A DNA stretch of 64,000 bases from Candidatus Sericytochromatia bacterium (GCA_026004035.1 BPII01000001.1:312-64311), one strand, 5' to 3'. Shown: positions 10,328-26,753, numbered from the stretch's first letter. The notes: a model not told the origin generated them from the sequence alone. Numbers and translations: made by a program.

Positions 10328-11868
10328 ATGAAATTAAGTATAAAACTATTGTCTTTATTAATTACTACAACAATTTTTGTTTCTGCTTGCTCTAATGATT
10401 TAGAAATTGATCCTACGCTAAAACAGAATAACTTAATAAAAATTGATAATGAGTTTCAAACTTTTGCTTCTCAATCAGCACAAATAATGACAACTGAAAA
10501 TGATATAAATAAAGATGGCAAAATTTCTTTACAAGAAAGCGGTTTAACTGATAAAGAAATGAAAGAAATTGATTCTGATGGAGATAATAATATATCTCTA
10601 TTTGAAATAATAAAAAATTTACAAGAAGAAATTTCAAATGCTATAAAAATAGCGCAAGCCATAACTAAGGATTTTCCTGTTTCCAGTGGTTATAATGGTC
10701 CTTTACCTAATAAGCTTCCAACTTTTACTTCAAAAGCTAATAAAGTTCAATTATTTATAGATAAAGATGAAATACTTCCTATGATGTTTGATACTATAAG
10801 AAATGCTAAAAAAAGTATTCAAATAGACGTATTTTTATTAGGAGGAAATATTGGATTACAAATTGCTCAAGAATTAGTAAAAAAGAAAAATGAAGGTGTT
10901 AATATAGAACTTACTATGGATCCGAATTTAGGTTTTGGTGGACCAACTCAAAAAGAAATATATACTGTTTTAAGTTTTTTACAAAAAAAATGGGATTAAT
11001 TTCAGGCTATATCCATTACATTTAATGCCTAAAGTTCAAGATGGATTATTAAAAAATAAATTTCAAATAGATCATAATAAGCTTTATGTTATAGATGAAG
11101 AAATTTTAATAATTGGTGGTTTCAATTTATTTGATATTGGAGTAATAAATAGAGATCTGATGCTAAAAATTGAAGGACCAACAGCAAAGGATGCTTCAAC
11201 AATGATGAGATATGAATGGTCATTAGGAGACACATTTGTATATAAACCACCTAGAGATGTCTATGTTATTAAAAATGAATTTCCTAGTGCTGATGCTTTA
11301 GTAAAAATTGTAAGGACTGATCCATTTGAAAGTACAACCAAAACAGGCAATTATTAATGCAATTGATAATGCTACTGAAAGTGTTTATTTAGCTGTATTA
11401 GACTATAGTGATATGGATATTACAAGAGCTTTAATAAGAGCTTATAGAAGAGGTGTAGATGTAAGGGTTTTAATGGATAGAAAAAATACCAATGATAAAT
11501 ATGCTGGAGGGTTACCAATTCCAGACTATTTTCCAAATATATTACCAGCTGTTGAATTATTTAAAAATAGAGTTCCTGTAAAATGGTATGATCCAAGAGT
11601 TAAAGGACAAGAGTTACATCTAAAGATGGTTTTAGTAGATGGAAATAAATTAATAACAGGTTCAACAAATTTTACTAGACAAGCATTTACAACTCTTAGA
11701 GAAACATCTGTAGTTGTAGAAGGTGGAACCGCACCAGCTAAAATGAGAAAGGCATTTATGGAAGATTGGCTTAATAGCTCTACTTCGTTAAAGAAAATTA
11801 CTTTAAAAGATAAAATAAAAGCAAAAGTTGTTGATTTTTTAGATAGAAAATATTACGCTTGGTGGTAA
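10328..11868 (+). pseudogene. Lipoprotein phospholipase D (HKD family) with two EF-hand loops, split into three ORFs by two +1 frameshifts in A-runs
   Basis: Signal peptide plus lipobox (FVSAC). EF-hand loops DINKDGKISLQE and DSDGDNNISLFE. HKD motifs HNKLYVID..GGFN (ORF 2) and HLKMVLVD..GSTN (ORF 3). Removing one A from A8 (10983-10990) and one from A4 (11340-11343) restores a single frame. Confidence 0.7.
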
Positions 11869-11910
11869 TTGTTATTATTATTTAATTATATTTTTAAGGT
11901 GTAAACAGTT

Positions 11911-13014
11911 ATGTTAGAAAATAAAAATATATCTACTGTTGCAAAGATAAAAGTTGTAGGTGTCGGTGGTGGTGGTGGAAATGCTATAAATAGGATGATT
12001 AATTCAGGATTAGAAGGTGTTGAATTTATATCTATAAATACTGATGCTCAGGCACTTTCTAGTTCATTAGCTGATAAAAAATTACAAATTGGTGAAAAAT
12101 TGACAAGAGGACTAGGTGCTGGTGGTAATCCTATAGTAGGTCAAAAAGCAGCTGAAGAAAGTAAAAATGATATTGCTGCTAATTTAGAAGGTGCTGATAT
12201 GGTATTTATTACTGCTGGTATGGGAGGTGGAACAGGTACAGGAGGAGCACCTATAATTGCTGAAGTAGCAAGAGAAATAGGAGCTTTGACAGTTGGAGTA
12301 GTTACAAAACCATTTTCATTTGAAGGAACGAGAAGAAAAAAACAAGCTGAAGAAGGTATATTAAATATAAAAGAAAAAGTTGACTCTCTTATTGTAATCC
12401 CAAATGATAAACTATTTTCAATAGTAGAAAGAAACACTCCTATGCAAGAAGCTTTTAGGATAGTAGATGATATATTAAGACAAGGCGTTCAAGGAATATC
12501 TGATATAATAAACATACCTGGGGTTATAAATGTTGATTTTGCTGATGTTAAAGCTATAATGTCAAATTCAGGTTCAGCTCTAATGGGTATTGGTAGAGCA
12601 TCAGGTGAAGGTAGAGCTGTAGAAGCAGCTAGATGTGCAATACAAAGTCCTCTTTTAGAAGGTAATGTATCAGATGCAAAAGGTCTTATATTCAATATAA
12701 CAGGTGGTAATGATTTAACTTTAGTAGAAATTAATGAAGCATCTGAAATTATAAGAAATCTTGTTAATGCTGATGATAATAATATAATATTTGGTTCTGT
12801 AATAAATCCTGAATTAAATGGTGAAATAATTATTACAGTAATAGCTACTGGTTTTGATAATAGTAGAAATAATATTGTTGTTCCAAAAACTATTTTAAAA
12901 GAAGTTAAACAACAAGAAACAATTTCTATACCTGTTTTTGAACCTGTTAAACCACTGATACAAGAAGAAGAAAACTCAATACCTCCATTTTTGAGAGATT
13001 TTAAAAGATTATAA
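11911..13014 (+). CDS. ftsZ: Cell division protein FtsZ
   Basis: [38 protein letters not shown] (tubulin signature), and the C-terminal peptide IPPFLRDF. Confidence 0.97.
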
Positions 13015-17142: not shown

Positions 17143-18549
17143 TTAATCAATATTTACTAGTTTTTTATCATTAAGTAAAATAAAGTATTCCTTCATCAGA
17201 AAATTTTTATAAAAAGAAACAATATTAATAAGTAAGTCTTCTTTTTTAAAAATATTTTTATTATTTAAATAATAATTACTTAATAATATTGGTAATCTTA
17301 TTTCTTTGTTTTTAATAATTTCATTAAATTTATTGAAAAAATCTAAAAGTTTGTCTTTATCTATTTTCAAATAATAAGCATTAATATTTTTATCTGACAA
17401 ACTTAAAAATATTTCTGTATTTATTTTTATATCATTATCATAGGAAAAAACTTCATATAATAAGTCGTTTATTATAAAAAAATTTTCTTTATCTAGAAAA
17501 AAATCAAATAATTTAAAGTTAAGTTTTTGTTCGCTAAATAAATTGTTATAAACAATTTTTTCAATATCCTTTATAGCAAAAGCATTATCTAATCCTCTAT
17601 CAAAAGCAACTTGTCTAAAATTATTACAAAACTCAAAAACAAAAGAACCTCTTTTTTGAAGTTCTAACATAGCTTTTACAAGACTCATAATAGAATGTTT
17701 AGAAATATTTCTTGAGTGTTGTTTATTAACTTTATTTATTCTTATAGCATCATAATAATCATAACCTGCTGGCAAATATTTATCTAAATCAGTATTAGTT
17801 GAATCTGTTATTATATCAGGTAATAAAGCTTCATTTAAAATTTTATTTACTACTTCAGAACCATTACCTAATAGTCCTATAATTTTTGATTGTTTTTCTT
17901 TTTTATAATAAAATGCAAAATCAAAAGCACTATTAAAATCTTCAAAAATGTAATCACAAAATCCTTGTTCTTGTCTTTTTCTTAAAATATAAGGATTTAT
18001 ATCTATGACAATAGAAACTCCACCTAAATATTTAGTTGCTTGTGATATAGCTATACCTGTATCTCCAAATCCAGAAGTTACAAGTATTTTTCCTTTTAGA
18101 GAACCTTTAAAATTTTCTAAAGTGATATCTTTCATTATATAGTAAGTTTCCAAAATTAGATTAAACTTTGAATTTTCTATTAAACTTAATTTAGATAATT
18201 CTTTATATATGTTAAATATTTTATCATTACATATATTTATTTCATTCTCAATAGAGTAATTCTTATTAATATTAATGTTTTCTAGATTTTTATCAACAAA
18301 TTTAAATTTATATTTATTTTTAGAGTTAATTAATTTACTTAAAATAATTTTTAATTCATTATATTTATCTTGTTTATTTTCATACCTTGATAGAATCAAT
18401 TTTATTAAAATATCTTTTGTTGATATGCACTTTTCTATATCTATATAAGGAAATGAAATTTCATCATTTAAAAACTTATTTATTATTTCATAATAATAAA
18501 AATTCTCTATTTTTAACAATTTAATATCCTCTAATTTAGAGTATATCAT
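17143..18549 (-). CDS. Highly divergent urocanate hydratase (HutU)-like protein, probably not a canonical urocanase
   Basis: Collinear with HutU landmarks: ILVTSGFGDTGIAISQA (cf. LTAGLGGMGGAQPLA), LLGNGSEVV...LLPDIITDSTNTD (cf. GNAAE...PDMVTDQTSAHD), YLPAGY, SLVKAMLELQKRGSFVFEFCNNFRQVAFDRGLDNAF (cf. [25 protein letters not shown]...VSNAF). Confidence 0.55.
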   Translation of the reverse strand: MIYSKLEDIKLLKIENFYYYEIINKFLNDEISFPYIDIEKCISTKDILIKLILSRYENKQDKYNELKIILSKLINSKNKYKFKFVDKNLENININKNYSIENEINICNDKIFNIYKELSKLSLIENSKFNLILETYYIMKDITLENFKGSLKGKILVTSGFGDTGIAISQATKYLGGVSIVIDINPYILRKRQEQGFCDYIFEDFNSAFDFAFYYKKEKQSKIIGLLGNGSEVVNKILNEALLPDIITDSTNTDLDKYLPAGYDYYDAIRINKVNKQHSRNISKHSIMSLVKAMLELQKRGSFVFEFCNNFRQVAFDRGLDNAFAIKDIEKIVYNNLFSEQKLNFKLFDFFLDKENFFIINDLLYEVFSYDNDIKINTEIFLSLSDKNINAYYLKIDKDKLLDFFNKFNEIIKNKEIRLPILLSNYYLNNKNIFKKEDLLINIVSFYKNFLMKEYFILLNDKKLVNID

Positions 18550-18621
18550 TAAAATTATTTTTAATAAAAAATTTTTAATTTACTTGACATGTAAATCAAA
18601 ATCAAATATAAATTAAATTAT

Positions 18622-18694
<73 letters not shown>

Positions 18695-18726
18695 TATATA
18701 TTTTTATTATATTATTGAGAATAATA

Positions 18727-19827
18727 ATGTCTGAAAATAATATTCAAGAAGATGTTTATGATGATATTGAATCTTTATTTGATGATTTAGATAATATTAT
18801 AAATAACGATGAAAATAATACTTCTAATGAACTAATTGAAAGTTTAGAAAATATTATAGAAGGAAAAGAAGAACCAAAAGTAGATTTTGATAGTGAAACT
18901 CAAAATTTGCTTGATGAATTGTCAGAATTTTTAGATGAACAAGAAACTGATTTAGAACAAGAAAGCTTGGAAGATGAAGAAATACCAAATCTTGATGAAA
19001 TGGCTAATGATGATTACTTTGAAGATGAACCATTACAAAGTGAAGACATTGAAACTGAAGAAACTAGAAAATTAAGAGAAGAAGCTGCCAAAGTTGCACT
19101 TGGATTAATGAATTATTGTGAATTTCATGTTATAAGTTTAGAAAACGAACTTGTAATTTTGGGTGATGCTTTTAATGAATTAATAGAGGAGACAAGAAAA
19201 TTAGATGACAAAATATCAAAATTAAGTGAAAAAATAAATAATGCTAAAGTTGAAGGTGCTAAACAATTAATGGATTTCATTCATGAAGAAATAAAATTAA
19301 TATCTGATAATTTAGAAGGTGCTATAAAATCAAGTGATCCTGGGGATTTAGAAATACTTTATGAAAATATAGAAATCTTAAAAGAAAATAAAAATGTAAT
19401 AGAAAATCAAATAAAAGGTTTAAAAGAAATAGGAGCAAATACTGACAAGTTAGAAAAGGATGTCCAAATATTAGAAAGTTCTATAGAAAAATTACAGAAA
19501 GCAATAGCTTCAAATGAAGTTTTTTCGGTTTCTATGAAATTTAATAATGAAATAAATCAAACAATATTTCAAATAAAAGAAGCTCAAGTTGCTGAAGATA
19601 TAGAAGATTTAAAAATTATAAATGAAAATTTAGATGTATTAATGGATAATAGAAATAATTTAGAAGAACAAATATGGGAATTATATAATAAAGGTTATGA
19701 TATAGAAGGACTTAAGCAACAATTAGAAGTTTTAAATATAAATTTAGAACAATTAAGTAGAACAATAGATGAAGCTACTTATAATATAAATATTATGATG
19801 AATAAAGAAAAAAAAAATAAATTTTAA
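18727..19827 (+). CDS. Acidic coiled-coil protein with an internal repeat of about 60 residues (hypothetical)
   Basis: ORF track (a TTG at 18715 is possible; the ATG at 18727 is preferred). The first 110 aa are D/E-rich and the rest is heptad-like. DLEILYENIEILKENKNVIENQIKGLKE repeats as DIEDLKIINENLDVLMDNRNNLEEQIWELYN. Confidence 0.55.
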   Translation: MSENNIQEDVYDDIESLFDDLDNIINNDENNTSNELIESLENIIEGKEEPKVDFDSETQNLLDELSEFLDEQETDLEQESLEDEEIPNLDEMANDDYFEDEPLQSEDIETEETRKLREEAAKVALGLMNYCEFHVISLENELVILGDAFNELIEETRKLDDKISKLSEKINNAKVEGAKQLMDFIHEEIKLISDNLEGAIKSSDPGDLEILYENIEILKENKNVIENQIKGLKEIGANTDKLEKDVQILESSIEKLQKAIASNEVFSVSMKFNNEINQTIFQIKEAQVAEDIEDLKIINENLDVLMDNRNNLEEQIWELYNKGYDIEGLKQQLEVLNINLEQLSRTIDEATYNINIMMNKEKKNKF

Positions 19828-20204
19828 TTTTCAGGATATTTTATTATATCAATTTTAGTTACAATTCCATCTTTTATAATAATTTCAGCTATTGTATCTC
19901 TAATTTTATTAAAATGAGAATTAACCCCTTCTATTTTAACACAAGCTTCTAAAAATAAATTGCCCATTATACCACTTGTAAGAAAAATTTTTTTAAAAAC
20001 TTCTGTTGTTTTATTCACAAGAGAATTAGGAATATTAAATTTTTCTTGATAGTTCTGATCAACTATTCTTTGTAGAATTTCTTTTGTAAATTCTTCTGCT
20101 GAATCATCTTTAAAAGAATTAAAAAGTTCTGTTCTTATATCATTAAAGTATTTCGGACTATTTATAGCTTTAATCCTTGCCAAACCATAAAGTTCAATAG
20201 CCAT
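19824..20204 (-). CDS. Hypothetical 126-aa protein, last gene of the minus-strand ORFan operon
   Basis: ORF track. Its start ATG (20202-20204) abuts the upstream gene's stop codon, sharing one base (ATTA on the plus strand). Its stop overlaps the convergent gene by 4 nt. Confidence 0.5.
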   Translation of the reverse strand: MAIELYGLARIKAINSPKYFNDIRTELFNSFKDDSAEEFTKEILQRIVDQNYQEKFNIPNSLVNKTTEVFKKIFLTSGIMGNLFLEACVKIEGVNSHFNKIRDTIAEIIIKDGIVTKIDIIKYPEN

Positions 20205-21112
20205 TATTTCTTTCCAAATTTTGTCATCAAACTTCTTACAAAACCAATATTTTCTAGTTTTTTTAATGGCATTAACACCATACCTTTTATAAGATTTGAT
20301 TGAAAATTTTTTTCTTCTTCTATTCTTCCTGCTACAAATCTATCAGTATTTGCTCTTGCATGACTTTCCGAATAACCTGTTATTTCTCCAGTAGCTTCCC
20401 ATATTCCATCATTACAAGCATACTTTAATTTTTGATCTAATTGTTTAGTATATTCAAGCTTAGACTGATAGTTTTTAAAATATATAGATAACATAAATAA
20501 AGATGCTCCTAGACTATGTGATGCTAATTTCATACTATAACCTATATTAACTTTTCCATAAATAACTTCTGATGCTATTATTTTCATTGCTTCTGCCATA
20601 ATTTTAGGATCATCATCATGTGGTGATATAGCCATAAGCCCTGTTACAACCATTTTTATTGCTTCTTGTAACCTTATTTCATTTTCTTTTGCAGCTTGCA
20701 TTGTTCCTTGTACTATTTCCCTAACTATAAGTCTGTATTCAGGTGATAATATATCAGGAGTATCAGACATAGCTTCAACTATTTGATTTAACAATGCTTT
20801 TTGCATGTTTGGACCAATACCATTTTCAGAATTTGGATCAGCATTAGCAGCAACAGTATTAAAAACAGATGAACCAATAGCTCCAAGACTATATTCTCTT
20901 ATTTGTTCTACAATTGTTTTATCTTTAACATGACTTACAATTTCAGATCCAGCAGGAACAAATAAATCTTGAGAAAAACCATCTAATACAGTAGAACCTT
21001 TTATAACAGCTGTAGCTCTTCTACTTGTAGAAGCTAAACTTTTTTTAGCAGGAGTAGTAGCAGATGCTGAATTTCTCTTATCTCTTTTTGCTACTTCTTC
21101 ACCTTCAGCCAT
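20204..21112 (-). CDS. Hypothetical protein, paralogue A of a duplicated helical domain family (motif ISPHDDDPK)
   Basis: 37 of 75 residues are identical to the next gene's product in a hand-aligned stretch (GLMAISPHDDDPKIMAEAMKIIASEVIYGKVNIGYS... vs TLMNISPHDDDPKFMSDALNVIVSELIYSKAKIGYT...). Basic, Ser/Thr/Ala-rich N-terminus. Confidence 0.65.
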   Translation of the reverse strand: MAEGEEVAKRDKRNSASATTPAKKSLASTSRRATAVIKGSTVLDGFSQDLFVPAGSEIVSHVKDKTIVEQIREYSLGAIGSSVFNTVAANADPNSENGIGPNMQKALLNQIVEAMSDTPDILSPEYRLIVREIVQGTMQAAKENEIRLQEAIKMVVTGLMAISPHDDDPKIMAEAMKIIASEVIYGKVNIGYSMKLASHSLGASLFMLSIYFKNYQSKLEYTKQLDQKLKYACNDGIWEATGEITGYSESHARANTDRFVAGRIEEEKNFQSNLIKGMVLMPLKKLENIGFVRSLMTKFGKK

Positions 21113-21157
21113 ATTACCTCTTAAATAGTATTCTATATATTATTATAATATAATTCT

Positions 21158-22492
21158 TTATTTCTTAAAAACTTTTTTTATGGAAGTTGTAGCAATTTCT
21201 TTGTACAAATTCTTCGTATATAAGTTTTCTTCTTCATTTCTACCTTGTATAAAAGCATCAACATTTGTTTTTACAGCTAATTGAGGATTTTTTGATATTT
21301 TGCTAATAGATTGCCATAAAGCTTCACCAACAGCACGATTAAGCTTGTGTTCTAATTCTTTACTAAATTCTATTTCATTTTGATAATTTCTATAATAAGT
21401 AAATAATGTAAATATAGCAGCTCCAATATTATAAGAAATATCTCTTAAGGTATAACCTATTTTAGCTTTAGAATAAATTAATTCAGAAACTATTACATTA
21501 AGAGCATCAGACATAAATTTTGGATCATCATCATGAGGTGATATATTCATAAGTGTAGATATTATCATTTTTGTACAATCTTTAAAATCTAAAGTATGTT
21601 CTAAAGCAGCTTTCATTGTTCCCATTATTACATCTCTTACATACTTTCTATAAGAATCATGGTTAACATCTTCAACTTTGTTTATCCCATTTATTAAAAC
21701 TGACAAATAATCTTTTTGAACAGTATCATTTAGTCCATTAGGGGATTTATGATTTACATGATTCGATATAGTATCAAATATCATCCATGCAAAATTAGTC
21801 ATTTCATATTCCATAATTTCTTGTATTATAGGTTTCTTTTCAATAACACTTACTCTTTGTTGAGATTTTCGACTACTTATAAACATATCTTGAGTACCAC
21901 TTTCAGAAACAACAGCACCTTTTAACATTTCAGGTATAACTACATTTTTTCTGTTTGGTAAGTTTGCTTTTTTTCTTTTTTTTCTATGATTTAAATCATC
22001 GCTTTCTTCTTCATCTTCATTCTTTTTTCTTTTAGCATTTAAATTATATCTAGTAACATATTTGCCATTAATGTTATCATCAGGATTTCTTGTTTTATCC
22101 TGATATTTTGGATCTTGTTGTACTAGGTTCTTTACTCCAGCAGTGCTAACATCATTTTGACCACCTGACATACTATTGTTTTGTATTTGTTTTTTTGAAT
22201 GTTCTTTTTCTGATTGATTAACTCTTTTAAATTTTCCTTCATCACTTGTAGCTGGAGATATTAAATTTTTAATGTTTTCTCCAACATCTTGTAACAATTT
22301 TTTTAAAAGTCCTGTATCCTGCTTATTATTATCTTCTACATATTTTAAAACAGCAGCATTTTTATTGTCAGCTTTTACTATTTTTTTATCATCTACCTGT
22401 TCAGAATTTCCTTTAATTTTAAATTCTTTTTCAAGTTTCCCACTTTCAACTAAAGTTTTATTAAAAGCTGCGTCAAGTTTTTGTACTGACAT
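21158..22492 (-). CDS. Hypothetical protein, paralogue B of the same family, with a charged N-terminal extension of about 170 residues
   Basis: The C-terminal 270 aa or so are collinear with the 302-aa paralogue. The N-terminus is K/E/N/Q-rich and includes RKKRKKANLPNRK. Confidence 0.65.
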   Translation of the reverse strand: MSVQKLDAAFNKTLVESGKLEKEFKIKGNSEQVDDKKIVKADNKNAAVLKYVEDNNKQDTGLLKKLLQDVGENIKNLISPATSDEGKFKRVNQSEKEHSKKQIQNNSMSGGQNDVSTAGVKNLVQQDPKYQDKTRNPDDNINGKYVTRYNLNAKRKKNEDEEESDDLNHRKKRKKANLPNRKNVVIPEMLKGAVVSESGTQDMFISSRKSQQRVSVIEKKPIIQEIMEYEMTNFAWMIFDTISNHVNHKSPNGLNDTVQKDYLSVLINGINKVEDVNHDSYRKYVRDVIMGTMKAALEHTLDFKDCTKMIISTLMNISPHDDDPKFMSDALNVIVSELIYSKAKIGYTLRDISYNIGAAIFTLFTYYRNYQNEIEFSKELEHKLNRAVGEALWQSISKISKNPQLAVKTNVDAFIQGRNEEENLYTKNLYKEIATTSIKKVFKK

Positions 22493-22732: not shown

Positions 22733-24448
22733 ATGTCTGAAGAATTAGAAAATAAGGAAAAAACTGAAGAAAATTCTTCTATAAATGAAGAAGATTTTAA
22801 TACAGATAGTCAGTTATTAACTGAACCTCAAGATTCATTAGCAATAAGTAGAGCTAAAGCTGCTTATGGTAAAAAATCTCCAAATACTGTAAGAGAAAGA
22901 AGAATACCACAAAGAGTTGTTACAGCTGATTATGTAAATGAAGAGCCTTATGAACCTGATGATATAGATGATGATACTATTATATCTCCTGATAAAGGCA
23001 CTATAAATAAAACTTATAAATCTTCATTGGAGTTAAAACAACAAAAAACTTATATAAATATTGCTGAATCTGTTAGTGGAGATGATGTATTAGCTTTACA
23101 ATCAGCTGATAGTAAATCAGGACAAACAATATCATTTAAAGTTAAAGGTATTCAATGGAAAGCAGGATTTTCAAATGAATTTACAAAAACTCCTTTGGGA
23201 CATTCTATGCATCCTATACCACTTCCAGGTCCAAATGATGACAGGCCTGATGCTCTAAAAAAAACAGGTATAGTTATAAGGCCTGTTAATCCAAAGTTAC
23301 AGAAAGTTTTAAGTCAATTATTACCAGCTTCTTTTAAAAAAGAAATGATAAAAGAGAGAAAAAAAAGAGATAGATTAAAACAATTAGCTATTTATTATTT
23401 GCCTTCTACTCAATCATCATCAGTTGGATTTATACATGAATATATTGTTCCAAGAAGTGATGGAAGGGATGCTTTTTATCTGTATGTTCAAACATCTGTT
23501 GGTAAAGCACCTGTAGCAATTTTAGATGAAGTTTTAAGAACTTTAGAAGCAGGTCTTCCTGAAGGAGAAAAAGCTGATGTATATGATTATACTCAAGTTG
23601 AAGAAGAAGATGTTGTATTACCAGAGCCTAATTATAAACTAGCTGAAGAAGTAAATGAAGCAATGAAACAAGTTTCTAGCACTCTTAATGATTCTGTATT
23701 AGTTCATTCTGTTAGAAAAGGATTAGCAAATACTAGAAACTTTTGGATTGAATTTATGAAACAATTTGATAAATATCTAGCAAGATTTGTAAGAGTATTA
23801 GCAGCAATAATTCTAATACTTATGAATAGTCTTCCTATGAGACTTTTTATTCAAGGATTAAGATTACTTACAAAAGGAATTGTAAAAATGATTTGGGGAG
23901 TTAATGGTATTTTACTAGCAATAGCAAGATCTCCTATCACAGCAGCTATTTTAAAAACTTTTGGTAAAGGTTTTTCATTGCTAGGAGGACTATTTGGTGC
24001 AGTATTTAGTGGTTTCTTTTACTTCTTTAAATTAATAGGAAAAACTATAGCTAGTATATATTTTAATACAGTATCTTTATTAAAAGATCCCAAAAATTTT
24101 GATTTAGGCATAAGTTTTCCAGGAAGAAAATTATTTGATGTACCTAAATCAGATAAAAGTAGTAAAGAAGAAAATAAAAAAGGAAGTACAAAAATAAAAG
24201 TAGCTAAAAAAGCTCAAATAGCAAAACCGAAACCTAAACCAAATGTTATAAAAGGTACAACTTCTTTTAGTCAAGTTACAAAACCTAATCCAAATACAGC
24301 TAAAAAACCTGTACCTCCTAAAGTTAAAGGTAGTACAGGAACTCAACAAATAGTTTCTTCAGGAAGTAATGAATCAACAGGAAAGGTAGCAAATACAAAA
24401 ACACCAGGAAGCACTCCTTTAGGTTATTTTGAAGATGAGCCATTTTAA
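22733..24448 (+). CDS. Hypothetical polytopic membrane protein with an acidic N-terminus and a basic Pro/Lys-rich C-terminal tail
   Basis: Hydrophobic block of about 100 aa (FVRVLAAIILILMNSL...GILLAIARSPITAAILKTFGKGFSLLGGLFGAVFSGFFYFFKLIG). Tail is KAQIAKPKPKPNVIKG...KKPVPPKVKG. Confidence 0.6.
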   Translation: MSEELENKEKTEENSSINEEDFNTDSQLLTEPQDSLAISRAKAAYGKKSPNTVRERRIPQRVVTADYVNEEPYEPDDIDDDTIISPDKGTINKTYKSSLELKQQKTYINIAESVSGDDVLALQSADSKSGQTISFKVKGIQWKAGFSNEFTKTPLGHSMHPIPLPGPNDDRPDALKKTGIVIRPVNPKLQKVLSQLLPASFKKEMIKERKKRDRLKQLAIYYLPSTQSSSVGFIHEYIVPRSDGRDAFYLYVQTSVGKAPVAILDEVLRTLEAGLPEGEKADVYDYTQVEEEDVVLPEPNYKLAEEVNEAMKQVSSTLNDSVLVHSVRKGLANTRNFWIEFMKQFDKYLARFVRVLAAIILILMNSLPMRLFIQGLRLLTKGIVKMIWGVNGILLAIARSPITAAILKTFGKGFSLLGGLFGAVFSGFFYFFKLIGKTIASIYFNTVSLLKDPKNFDLGISFPGRKLFDVPKSDKSSKEENKKGSTKIKVAKKAQIAKPKPKPNVIKGTTSFSQVTKPNPNTAKKPVPPKVKGSTGTQQIVSSGSNESTGKVANTKTPGSTPLGYFEDEPF

Positions 24449-24460
24449 TTTATATAAATT

Positions 24461-25747
24461 ATGAGTAACGAATTGTATGATCAATTAATTGGTGTTAATT
24501 TTCCTTGTGTTGAATATTTGGAAGATAATTATAAAGAACATTATGAGTTATTAAAAGAAGCAGATGAATTCTCAGCAGCAGCAGTTTTATATCCCGATGA
24601 AAAAAATGAACTTTTAGCTAATAGCTTGCATAGATATCAGTTAATATTAGATAAAGCATCTAAAATATTAAAATTAGAAACTGATTTCTTATTAAAAAAG
24701 AAAATTTGTTTTAATTTTTATACTGATATAGCTAACCTTTTTGGACTTGGAACTCAAGCATATACTACAGAAACAGAAACTCCTTATATAGGAGTAAGTG
24801 AATTAAGCTTACAAAATGTATATCTTTTACAATTAATACTATTACATGAAATGCAACATGCTACAGACTTTGTTTATTTCAATGGATTTGATATGGGAGT
24901 AGCAGAAAGGGAATTAAGGGCAAGACTTACTATATGTCATTCTTTAAATGAATTACAAAAGCAATTTAATAAGTTATACAAAAATGCTTATATAGATCAA
25001 GCATATTGGTTTGTAATATTATTCTCATCACCTAATATAAGTGATGAGTTAAAGTATAAATACTATGAATTGCTAGAAAAACCAGCTAAAGATATTTTAG
25101 AAAGTGATGATGGAGTTGTATTTTCACCATTAATTTTAAGAGTGTTTGGAATGGAATTAAAAAGAGAAGGAGTAAATTTAAAAGCAAATACTAGTTATTC
25201 TATAACTAATAGAAATGGCTTACTAATAATGGAAGAAAAAGAATTAAAAATTCAAGAAGAAATACAAGAAGAAGATACAATAATTTCTGATACTGAAACT
25301 TATGATGATAAATTATTATCTGTTAAGCTATCAAGAATGACAGGGGAAAAAATATCCGATGAAAATCAACCATTAACATTAGTTAAAAATAAATTAATAG
25401 AATGGCATACTTATAAAGATGAATTAAAAAATATGAAAAAAAATGCAAACATAATAATAACAAGGAATGCTGAATCTCTTTCTAATATTTCAACTGTTGA
25501 AAATACTAATTTATCAGTTCCGAAAATAATAAAAGTCGAAAAACAATTTATAAAAATGGAAAATGATTTTGAAAAATTAAGAAATATAAATATTCCTAAT
25601 TCAACTTATAAACCTGAAGATTTTTCTAATGATGACTCACCAATAATTATTTTAAATAACGCTAATAGAAAAAAAGTTATAGAAGAAGATAATGAAGCAC
25701 AAAATTTTGTTAATAATTTATCAGATTTTTTCAAAGGTAAAAAATAA
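24461..25747 (+). CDS. Hypothetical protein with a zincin-type HExxH motif (putative metallopeptidase)
   Basis: LILLHEMQHATDFVYFNGFDMGVAERE: HEMQH with a Glu about 20 residues downstream (gluzincin-like spacing). Starts 12 nt after the upstream stop. Confidence 0.5.
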   Translation: MSNELYDQLIGVNFPCVEYLEDNYKEHYELLKEADEFSAAAVLYPDEKNELLANSLHRYQLILDKASKILKLETDFLLKKKICFNFYTDIANLFGLGTQAYTTETETPYIGVSELSLQNVYLLQLILLHEMQHATDFVYFNGFDMGVAERELRARLTICHSLNELQKQFNKLYKNAYIDQAYWFVILFSSPNISDELKYKYYELLEKPAKDILESDDGVVFSPLILRVFGMELKREGVNLKANTSYSITNRNGLLIMEEKELKIQEEIQEEDTIISDTETYDDKLLSVKLSRMTGEKISDENQPLTLVKNKLIEWHTYKDELKNMKKNANIIITRNAESLSNISTVENTNLSVPKIIKVEKQFIKMENDFEKLRNINIPNSTYKPEDFSNDDSPIIILNNANRKKVIEEDNEAQNFVNNLSDFFKGKK

Positions 25748-26667
25748 TGAATAATATAAAAAAAAATTATAGTAACTATAATTTAGATTCTGATAATTAT
25801 TTAGAAGATATAAAAAATTATCCCAAAGATTCTTATGTAAAGAACAATACAAATTCTAGCATAGGTAAATTAGATAAATATAGCAAAGAAAAAGAAAATT
25901 TTAATAATGAAAAATCAAAAATAATATTAAAAGAAAGCAATATTGATAAAACACTAGATGATTTAATACCTTCACAAATTGGAGATGCAATAGATAATGT
26001 TTTTTCTTCTGTAGATAATTTACTAACAAAAGCTGGAAAACTAATGTTTGGCCATATGAAAAATAAAAAAGTAAATTCTATTCCTAAAAAAAATAATATT
26101 GTTGTAAATAATCCAGTTAAAACAGTTTCTTCAAGAAATATAAATACTAATACTAATAATCAATTAAAAGTTATTACAGAAGCAAACACAAATAATAAAT
26201 CAGAAAATAATCAAAAATTAGAAAAAACTGAACAAAAACAAGAAATAAAAAAATCACCTCCTATAACTAGAACAACAAGCATATCAGAGTTAGATTTACC
26301 TTTGGATATTTTATCTGATTCTGATTTAGTAAAATATTTCGATCAAATGAAATTATACGATAAGAAAATAGAAGGTGGTTTATGCTCATTAACTTTTAGT
26401 GAAGCAGAAGAGATATTAAAAAAAGGAAAATGGGGCAAATTATTTACAATAAAATATGAACAATTGAAAATAAATACTATGATAGCTGGTTCTGATGCAC
26501 CCCTTAAAAGATTTAATGGAATGTTACCTGTTTATAAAGCATTAGCTAGAAAATTTAAAAATACTGAAGAGTTAAAGAAAGCTATTGAAAGAGATATTGA
26601 AACTTATCTTAGAACAGGAGAAGGTAGTAAAGACTTTCATAAATTTACTTATACTTTAAAAAAATGA
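25747..26667 (+). CDS. Hypothetical protein: Asn-rich N-terminal half and a compact C-terminal domain
   Basis: ORF track. Start overlaps the upstream stop (TAATG). The stop abuts the tRNA-Leu 3' end. Confidence 0.5.
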   Translation: MNNIKKNYSNYNLDSDNYLEDIKNYPKDSYVKNNTNSSIGKLDKYSKEKENFNNEKSKIILKESNIDKTLDDLIPSQIGDAIDNVFSSVDNLLTKAGKLMFGHMKNKKVNSIPKKNNIVVNNPVKTVSSRNINTNTNNQLKVITEANTNNKSENNQKLEKTEQKQEIKKSPPITRTTSISELDLPLDILSDSDLVKYFDQMKLYDKKIEGGLCSLTFSEAEEILKKGKWGKLFTIKYEQLKINTMIAGSDAPLKRFNGMLPVYKALARKFKNTEELKKAIERDIETYLRTGEGSKDFHKFTYTLKK

Positions 26668-26753
26668 TGCTCGGAGCGAGACTTGAACTCGCACGGGATT
26701 TGTGTCCCGCAGGATTTTAAGTCCTGTGCGTCTGCCGATTCCGCCACCCGAGC
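26668..26753 (-). tRNA. tRNA-Leu (anticodon UAA), type II with a long variable arm
   Basis: 86-nt cloverleaf on the reverse complement: acceptor GCTCGGG/TCCGAGC, anticodon stem CAGGA/TCCTG with loop CT-TAA-AA, long variable arm, T-loop TTCAAGT. Confidence 0.9.

Follow-up and report, generated by a model that had tools for sequence, protein, structure and literature searches.

An operon of two paralogous helical proteins and a small partner inherited within one order of Sericytochromatia

The subject of this study is a group of three genes on a 64,000-nucleotide stretch of DNA from a Candidatus Sericytochromatia bacterium (GCA_026004035.1 BPII01000001.1:312-64311), hereafter the window, which we call B, A and C in their order on the minus strand. 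Judged by the layout of the sequence, they are one co-transcribed operon. A and B are paralogues that share an all-helical domain of about 240 residues, placed behind a disordered N-terminus of mixed charge and a short motif K-G-x-V...Q-D-x-F; this domain is outside every described family at the levels of sequence and structure tested, and its fold class, a helical stack, is an ordinary one. The module is inherited vertically, within one order of Sericytochromatia. Among non-photosynthetic bacteria they are some of the closest relatives that the oxygenic Cyanobacteria have; to our knowledge they have no cultured representative, and their cell biology is known from genomes. A protein of the A type, which occurs in nearly every genome of one order, changes as slowly as FtsZ and belongs to no known family, probably has a central function that annotation has missed, and the B-A-C module is a well-defined target for structural and biochemical work rather than a solved puzzle.

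The initial annotation of the window had read the locus as a pair of duplicated subunits with an unrecognised helical domain, followed by a small coupled partner, of a kind seen in hetero-oligomeric structural assemblies, and every testable part of this interpretation held. The three open reading frames (of 126, 302 and 444 codons) lie exactly where it had placed them, all on the minus strand, and the paralogy of A and B is far beyond chance (BLASTP, 33% identity and 61% positives over 286 residues, E 6e-63). The count of 37 identities in 75 ungapped positions, in the stretch that begins with LM.ISPHDDDPK, is exact, and the basic stretches quoted for both proteins were located at residues 9-32 of A and 170-182 of B. 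The common K-G-x-V...F element was found at residues 37-53 of A (IKGSTVLDGFSQDLFVP) and 190-206 of B (LKGAVVSESGTQDMFIS); in an alignment of 40 family members its residues G39, V42, D49 and F51 (A numbering) are invariant. One proposal did not stand, namely ISPHDDDPK as the motif that defines the family, since it is kept within this order alone and is missing in distant members.

The coupling of A and C is as tight as had been described: the stop codon of A (TAA) and the start codon of C (ATG) have one base in common, in TAATG at 20204. B and A are separated by a spacer of 45 nt with a Shine-Dalgarno-like site in it, and no terminator-like site occurs between 19500 and 23000, hence none inside the operon. 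The window is very AT-rich (about 24% G+C). It is a normal piece of chromosome, and ftsZ, rimO/miaB-type and glycosyltransferase genes lie near the locus. The positions of the genes and of their parts are collected in Table 1.

The helical nature of the domain is supported by a confident, all-helical AlphaFold2 model of A, built on an alignment of 40 sequences (mean predicted local distance difference test score, pLDDT, of 80; predicted template modelling score 0.70), in which pLDDT exceeds 90 over residues 65-280 and a separate short helix (290-299) follows the ten-helix domain. No characterised family was recovered for the domain from Pfam, NCBIfam, PHROGs, PADLOC, PDB sequence profiles or Foldseek. 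A and B themselves match nothing in the first four of these collections, and PDB sequence profiles gave no match with either a narrow or a broad alignment; when 40 relatives of A and B were compared one by one with Pfam, no consistent family emerged, the matches to SURF4, CDC45 and TPR_SYO1 all being far under their cut-offs. A Foldseek search of the A model against PDB and BFVD retrieved no natural structure at E<0.001, and BFVD gave no match. The best hit was the designed helical repeat DHR4 (PDB 5cwb; E 3e-3, TM-score 0.69 normalised on the target), followed by lesser, insignificant all-alpha matches to translin, 14-3-3, TOG and CNOT1.

The stack of some ten antiparallel helices in the A model resembles both DHR4 and the HEAT, ARM and TPR alpha-solenoids, and a true HEAT-repeat protein (PF13646, E 2.5e-63) is encoded in the corresponding operon of a sister family of bacteria. 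Nevertheless, neither A, B nor any of the 40 relatives matches a repeat model such as PF13646 or PF03130 above cut-off (the best, to TPR_SYO1, has E 0.012 and lies under it), and a comparison of the A domain with the neighbouring HEAT protein by hhalign gave a probability of 0.2%. The domain has no detectable internal sequence repeats either: four consecutive helix-pair segments, compared with one another, reached a probability of 5.5% at most. Membership of the HEAT/ARM/TPR class was therefore rejected on both the profile match and the internal repeats, the overall shape of a helical stack being all that is shared. The three proteins appear to be soluble, because no 19-residue window has a mean Kyte-Doolittle hydropathy above 1.6, the cut-off used for a membrane segment (maxima of 1.09 for A, 0.79 for B and 1.46 for C); on the same grounds, together with the sub-threshold SURF4 scores, integral membrane proteins were dismissed.

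The distribution of the family is narrow. In a word-indexed search of 5.8 billion proteins A had 63 relatives (54-96% identity), all the named ones being from Sericytochromatia or Cyanobacteriota metagenome-assembled genomes, B had only 5, and C had 39, one of them labelled Candidatus Blackallbacteria. A full HMMER profile search of 1.84 billion representatives, a kind of search that the initial annotation had envisaged, returned only 30 proteins. One genome from each of 185,579 prokaryotic species yielded 16 loci, whose titles are all Sericytochromatia, Blackallbacteria, UBA7694 or unclassified Cyanobacteriota. Sampled across the phylum, the family is present in 18 of 301 Cyanobacteriota genomes: as two tandem copies in 5 of the 6 genomes of the source genome's own family (f1, the source family below), as one copy in 12 of 13 genomes of a sister family in the same order (f2), and in one genome of a further family of the class (f7) as a full-length copy beside a second match that is partial and divergent. 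The protein family is missing from the other four listed families of the class (f3-f6) and from all other sampled Cyanobacteriota.

A few family members outside this group are very distantly related (E 1e-7 to 1e-27); one is fused to TPR repeats and two have long helical N-terminal extensions. They retain the helix VR[DE]IVQGxMxA but not the SPHDDDPK loop, and residues R131, G136, K153, E182 and G202 are invariant even in them; the neighbourhoods of three (P0089, P0094 and P0095) contain no small partner. A divergent copy of the domain also occurs in some Sericytochromatia (G094:C679:7951-8565 and G136:C419:228-836). One such copy, of 26% identity, has two in-frame stops and may be a pseudogene; the other, of 31% identity, is at the end of a contig. 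Both resemble the distant branch P0085/P0089.

Gene order was compared by clustering the open reading frames of 13 neighbourhoods. In the source family the order is B-A-C in every case. In the sister family a single A-type gene (460-473 aa) is followed by a gene of 140-159 aa and then by the HEAT-repeat protein (441-449 aa); by hhalign, the gene of 140-159 aa is a homologue of C (probability 96.7%, E 3.6e-10). C almost always directly follows the A-type gene, with stop and start overlapping. Of the 18 sampled genomes with the family, 17 have C and keep the A-C pair, so that these homologues are not mere singletons among unrelated neighbours. The closest relative, whose B is 82% identical, has the whole triad with the overlap of A and C, and every flanking gene is different; the three genes thus stay together as a unit while the flanks change. 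From this comparison it follows that A and C are the conserved unit and B is an addition specific to the source family. The HEAT-repeat gene, confined to the sister family, was rejected as a universal component.

All three genes are under purifying selection, the ratio of non-synonymous to synonymous substitution rates (dN/dS) against the closest relative being 0.03 for A, 0.16 for B and 0.21 for C; in B the ratio is alike in the N-terminal half (0.165) and in the domain half. Within the source family A is 76-85% identical and FtsZ of the same genomes 70-73%, and between the source and the sister family the values are 66-68% and 66-71%, respectively; by these identities, A diverges about as slowly as FtsZ. 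Above the distant outgroups, a maximum-likelihood tree contains a short-branched A clade, a short-branched clade of single-copy proteins and a long-branched B clade, which is monophyletic (SH-aLRT 95) and in which the stem of the source genome's lineage measures 1.8 changes per site.

The copies differ in their termini. The single-copy proteins have a low-complexity N-terminus of 150-206 residues and a C-terminal tail, PLKKLENxPFVRKLMSRFQKG. A has retained the tail and has 36 residues before the K-G-x-V motif; B has about 190 residues before it and typically ends right behind PLKK, without the tail, a tail-like end being retained in the two deepest branches of its clade, P0076 and P0077. The N-termini of single-copy and B proteins align solely in a basic-acidic-basic cluster just upstream of the motif (hhalign probability 79%). 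Ancestrally there was one gene, of 412-476 aa, with a long disordered N-terminus and an amphipathic C-terminal tail. Upon its duplication in the source family, A was left with the tail and a short N-terminus and stayed extremely constrained; B, which retains the long N-terminus and has lost the tail, has evolved several times faster. The module is a clean natural case of a duplicated subunit in which the copies have split the ancestral terminal regions while remaining in one operon. According to the general model, the subunit of a homo-oligomer duplicates and a hetero-oligomer with partitioned subfunctions results. The split termini, the adjacency of A and B in one operon and the strongly asymmetric rates resemble such paralogous hetero-oligomers, with the difference that the physical association of A and B is here a prediction.

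The small partner has an alpha/beta fold in its AlphaFold2 model (pLDDT 78), with the topology b-a-a-a-a-b-b-b, which begins with a long strand, continues with four helices and ends with three strands. C had no match above cut-off in Pfam, NCBIfam, PHROGs or PADLOC. LPD14 (20.3 bits against a cut-off of 27) and the C-terminal domain of trigger factor (Trigger_C, 16.4 against 22.7; TIGR00115, 16.8 against 180) were rejected; these weak matches recur in only 2 of 35 relatives of C, and a Pfam scan of the 35 revealed no consistent weak family. PDB sequence profiles gave no match. The sole notable structural neighbour in Foldseek is PDB 4dci, an uncharacterised protein of Synechococcus sp. WH 8102, which is also cyanobacterial and of similar size (about 145 aa); the match extends over 145 columns, near the full length of both proteins (E 6e-5, probability 1.00), and the five chains of the entry are the top five hits. 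The TM-score, however, is 0.35 and the root-mean-square deviation 11.8 Å, so either the arrangement of the elements differs or the C model is imprecise; the identity is 16% and no sequence-profile search retrieves 4dci. The match is a lead for C and not a membership, and since 4dci is uncharacterised it offers no functional lead. The literature on 4DCI and on the Sericytochromatia and Blackallbacteria yielded nothing about function.

We tentatively propose, from gene layout and conservation, that A, B and C form a scaffold complex that is inherited vertically, resides in the cytoplasm and may be tethered to the membrane. The ancestral single-copy protein would have acted as a homo-oligomer, and A and B would now constitute a hetero-oligomer that jointly supplies both terminal regions; their association is predicted because complementary terminal loss in copies that remain adjacent fits the passage from a homo-oligomer to an obligate hetero-oligomer. 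C would bind the helical domain of the A-type protein as an adaptor or assembly partner, at a fixed stoichiometry that is suggested by the stop/start overlap and the strict co-occurrence. The basic amphipathic tail may tether the complex to the cytoplasmic membrane, and the disordered N-terminus with its conserved short motif may recruit a further partner. Such a module would be a scaffold or organising complex rather than an enzyme, a defence system or a toxin pair. The near-uniform surface conservation of A fits several interfaces or self-assembly.

The two termini deserve separate comment. MinD and FtsA carry C-terminal amphipathic membrane-targeting helices, and the tail of A is likewise a short basic amphipathic helix that stands apart from the folded domain at the extreme C-terminus (FVRSLMTKFGKK; in the sister family, FVRKLLSRFQKG); its hydrophobic moment is 0.45-0.71 across orthologues. 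A differs from these proteins in having neither an ATPase nor an actin-like domain, there is no homology, and its membrane binding is a prediction only. The conserved motif in the disordered arm looks like a putative docking peptide for another partner. A beta-clamp-binding peptide, for which the consensus is Q-L-[SD]-L-F, was considered for its Q-D-[LM]-F part and rejected, because the first Gln varies and the motif is too short by one residue in its spacing.

Several observations weigh against the scaffold complex. The hydrophobic moment of the source genome's own A tail is modest, 0.51. Two lineages with a single-copy gene, L003 and the f7 family, have no detectable C beside it, and C is therefore not universally required; the HEAT-repeat protein, third gene of the sister-family operon, has no orthologue in the source family, and the composition of the module is therefore not fixed. 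The conserved polar residues H165, D166, D168, K170, N214, Y215, Q216, R131, K153, E182 and E266 could serve ligand binding or catalysis instead. Finally, the A/B domain might have a remote known relative, the comparison having covered Pfam, NCBIfam, PHROGs, PADLOC, PDB and BFVD.

Among the other explanations, A and B might be nucleoid- or RNA-associated and possibly condensate-forming, the N-terminus binding nucleic acid, the domain oligomerising and C regulating the assembly; nucleic-acid binding by the basic N-termini had been raised in the initial annotation. Basic clusters with acidic runs do stand directly upstream of the motif (KRKKNEDEEESDD..RKKRKK in B, ..DRDEE..RRRRPRQ in the single-copy form), this cluster is the very part of the N-terminus that aligns between the two, and the N-terminus of B is under purifying selection by its dN/dS of 0.165. 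We nevertheless consider this role unlikely. The Arg/Lys-rich, mixed-charge disordered N-termini have a low net charge: +2 in A, +9 over 200 residues for B and +3 over 220 residues for single-copy proteins. In A, the copy under the strongest constraint, the N-terminus is only 60 residues long, and scans of Pfam and NCBIfam revealed no known DNA- or RNA-binding domain.

The helical domain may alternatively be an enzyme or a binder of a ligand or metal, in which the SPHDDDPK and KNYQ loops would form a metal site and C would be a regulatory or specificity subunit. H165, D166, D168, K170, N214, Y215 and Q216 show no or next to no variation in 40 sequences, the helix order of the model would bring the two loops, HDDD and KNYQ, to one edge of the stack, and A is conserved at the level of FtsZ. 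This function is made quite unlikely by the loss of the HDDD loop in distant members (STKSKDD, SPFTEDG, SYIENPY, SPIESIED) and even in some proteins of the B clade (SPHKNKLE, SPHENQSD), by the family-wide invariance of R131, G136, K153, E182 and G202 alone, and by the lack of any match to the HD domain or another enzyme family and of any enzyme among the structural matches. The HD-domain metal-dependent phosphohydrolases in particular were rejected: there is one invariant His (H165) only, no Pfam HD match, and a loop that is not family-wide.

That the operon is the cargo of a mobile island between tRNA genes (toxin-antitoxin, effector-immunity or defence) is scarcely credible, for although its genes lie in an 8-kb block of unassignable open reading frames bounded by tRNA-Lys and tRNA-Leu, and the overlap of C with the end of the larger gene A recalls many toxin-immunity pairs, the phyletic pattern tracks taxonomy with one or two copies per genome, the block's other open reading frames (370, 571, 428 and 306 aa) adjoin the triad in no relative, and the dN/dS of 0.03 and FtsZ-like conservation of A are unlike those of fast-evolving conflict genes; the absence of PADLOC and PHROGs matches, the taxonomic distribution and dN/dS values of 0.03-0.21 led us to reject toxin-antitoxin, effector-immunity and anti-phage modules alike. 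The probability left over from these readings and from the scaffold complex belongs to some other function.

The scaffold complex also has a bolder version, which we regard as rather improbable: A and C may be the core of a hitherto unknown system that organises the cell, in the form of a helical scaffold that is tethered to the membrane, assembles itself, is as constrained as FtsZ and occurs in one order of Sericytochromatia only. A polymerising or lattice-forming A is suggested because uniform surface conservation would be expected of such a protein. If true, it would represent a new class of bacterial cytoskeletal or compartment-organising protein, in which the paralogue pair has divided between them the ancestral membrane anchor and the disordered recruiting arm.

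Table 1. Positions in the window of the genes B, A and C and of the elements within them.
Feature	Position	Strand	Remarks
Gene B, 444 aa	21158-22492	-	Open reading frame; fast-evolving paralogue with long disordered N-terminus and helical domain, without C-terminal tail
N-terminal region of B, residues 1-189	21926-22492	-	Low complexity, mixed charge, net +9; dN/dS 0.165, constrained
KRKKNEDEEESDDLNHRKKRKK within N-terminal region of B	21968-22033	-	
Conserved short linear element of B, LKGAVVSESGTQDMFIS, residues 190-206	21875-21925	-	Aligns with A 37-53; G, V, D, F invariant in 40 sequences
Helical domain of B, residues ~215-444	21161-21850	-	Collinear with the domain of A
SPHDDDPK of B	21518-21541	-	
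AAGAGG, Shine-Dalgarno-like site (ribosome-binding site of gene A)	21117-21122	-	Read in the sequence; in the B-A spacer, 4 bases ahead of ATG
Gene A, 302 aa	20204-21112	-	Open reading frame; slowly evolving paralogue
Short disordered N-terminus of A, residues 1-62	20927-21112	-	AlphaFold2 pLDDT <50
Conserved element of A, IKGSTVLDGFSQDLFVP	20954-21004	-	Conservation across the family
Helical domain of A, residues 64-288, ten helices	20249-20923	-	AlphaFold2 block, pLDDT mostly 88-97
Most widely conserved helix of A, IVREIVQGTMQAAK	20687-20728	-	
SPHDDDPK loop of A	20603-20626	-	
C-terminal tail of A, LENIGFVRSLMTKFGKK, residues 286-302	20207-20257	-	Short basic amphipathic helix; candidate membrane-targeting sequence
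Gene C, 126 aa	19824-20204	-	Open reading frame; small alpha/beta partner, coupled to A through the TAATG overlap

The 8-kb block in which the triad lies is flanked by tRNA-Lys(CTT) at 18621-18695 and tRNA-Leu(TAA) at 26668-26753. None of its open reading frames reaches the Pfam gathering threshold, and the B-A-C triad is the only part of it that is kept elsewhere. Convergent to gene C, on the plus strand at 18715-19827, is the gene of an acidic coiled-coil protein of 370 aa, whose TAA stop (19825-19827) overlaps the stop of C (19824-19826); the protein has a weak match to an archaeal SMC-related family (NF045487, E 5e-6, far under cut-off), and the gene is not a conserved neighbour of the triad in relatives. 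On the other side of the triad, the genes for proteins of 571, 428 and 306 aa (22733-26667) have no homologue in the neighbourhoods of the 12 relatives compared. Next to the block, at 17143-18549 on the minus strand, a protein of 468 aa with termini rich in Asn, Lys and Ile has a urocanase Rossmann-like domain (PF01175, E 1e-39) as its sole recognised domain.

Other genes recur beside the module in relatives. A small Gln-rich protein (163-175 aa) with a central glycine-zipper hydrophobic segment and a weak C19orf12-like match is encoded divergently from B in 3 of the 5 sampled source-family genomes (L018 11492-12001, L019 7973-8500, L020 7793-8284; the f1-type loci number six if the JGI contig L053 is counted). 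It was rejected as an obligate partner, being unlinked in G016 and not found in the source genome, which is 75% complete. Convergent to the HEAT-repeat gene of the sister family are two conserved genes whose products have about 160 and 186 aa (L021 6161-7214; also L022, L023 and L027); the L021 pair has no Pfam match, and the other three pairs were grouped with it by BLAST only. At L003 the partnerless single-copy gene is followed by a gene (11269-12873) for a 534-aa protein with no precomputed Pfam match on record, in which a C-terminal Cys...His pattern is, by eye, reminiscent of NlpC/P60-type peptidases.

The ftsZ gene of the window is at 11911-13014. A second FtsZ-like gene was present in all four sister-family genomes tested (G004, G028, G058 and G082) and in one genome of the source family, G052; its product is 55-57% identical to the FtsZ of the window in the sister family and 70% identical in G052.

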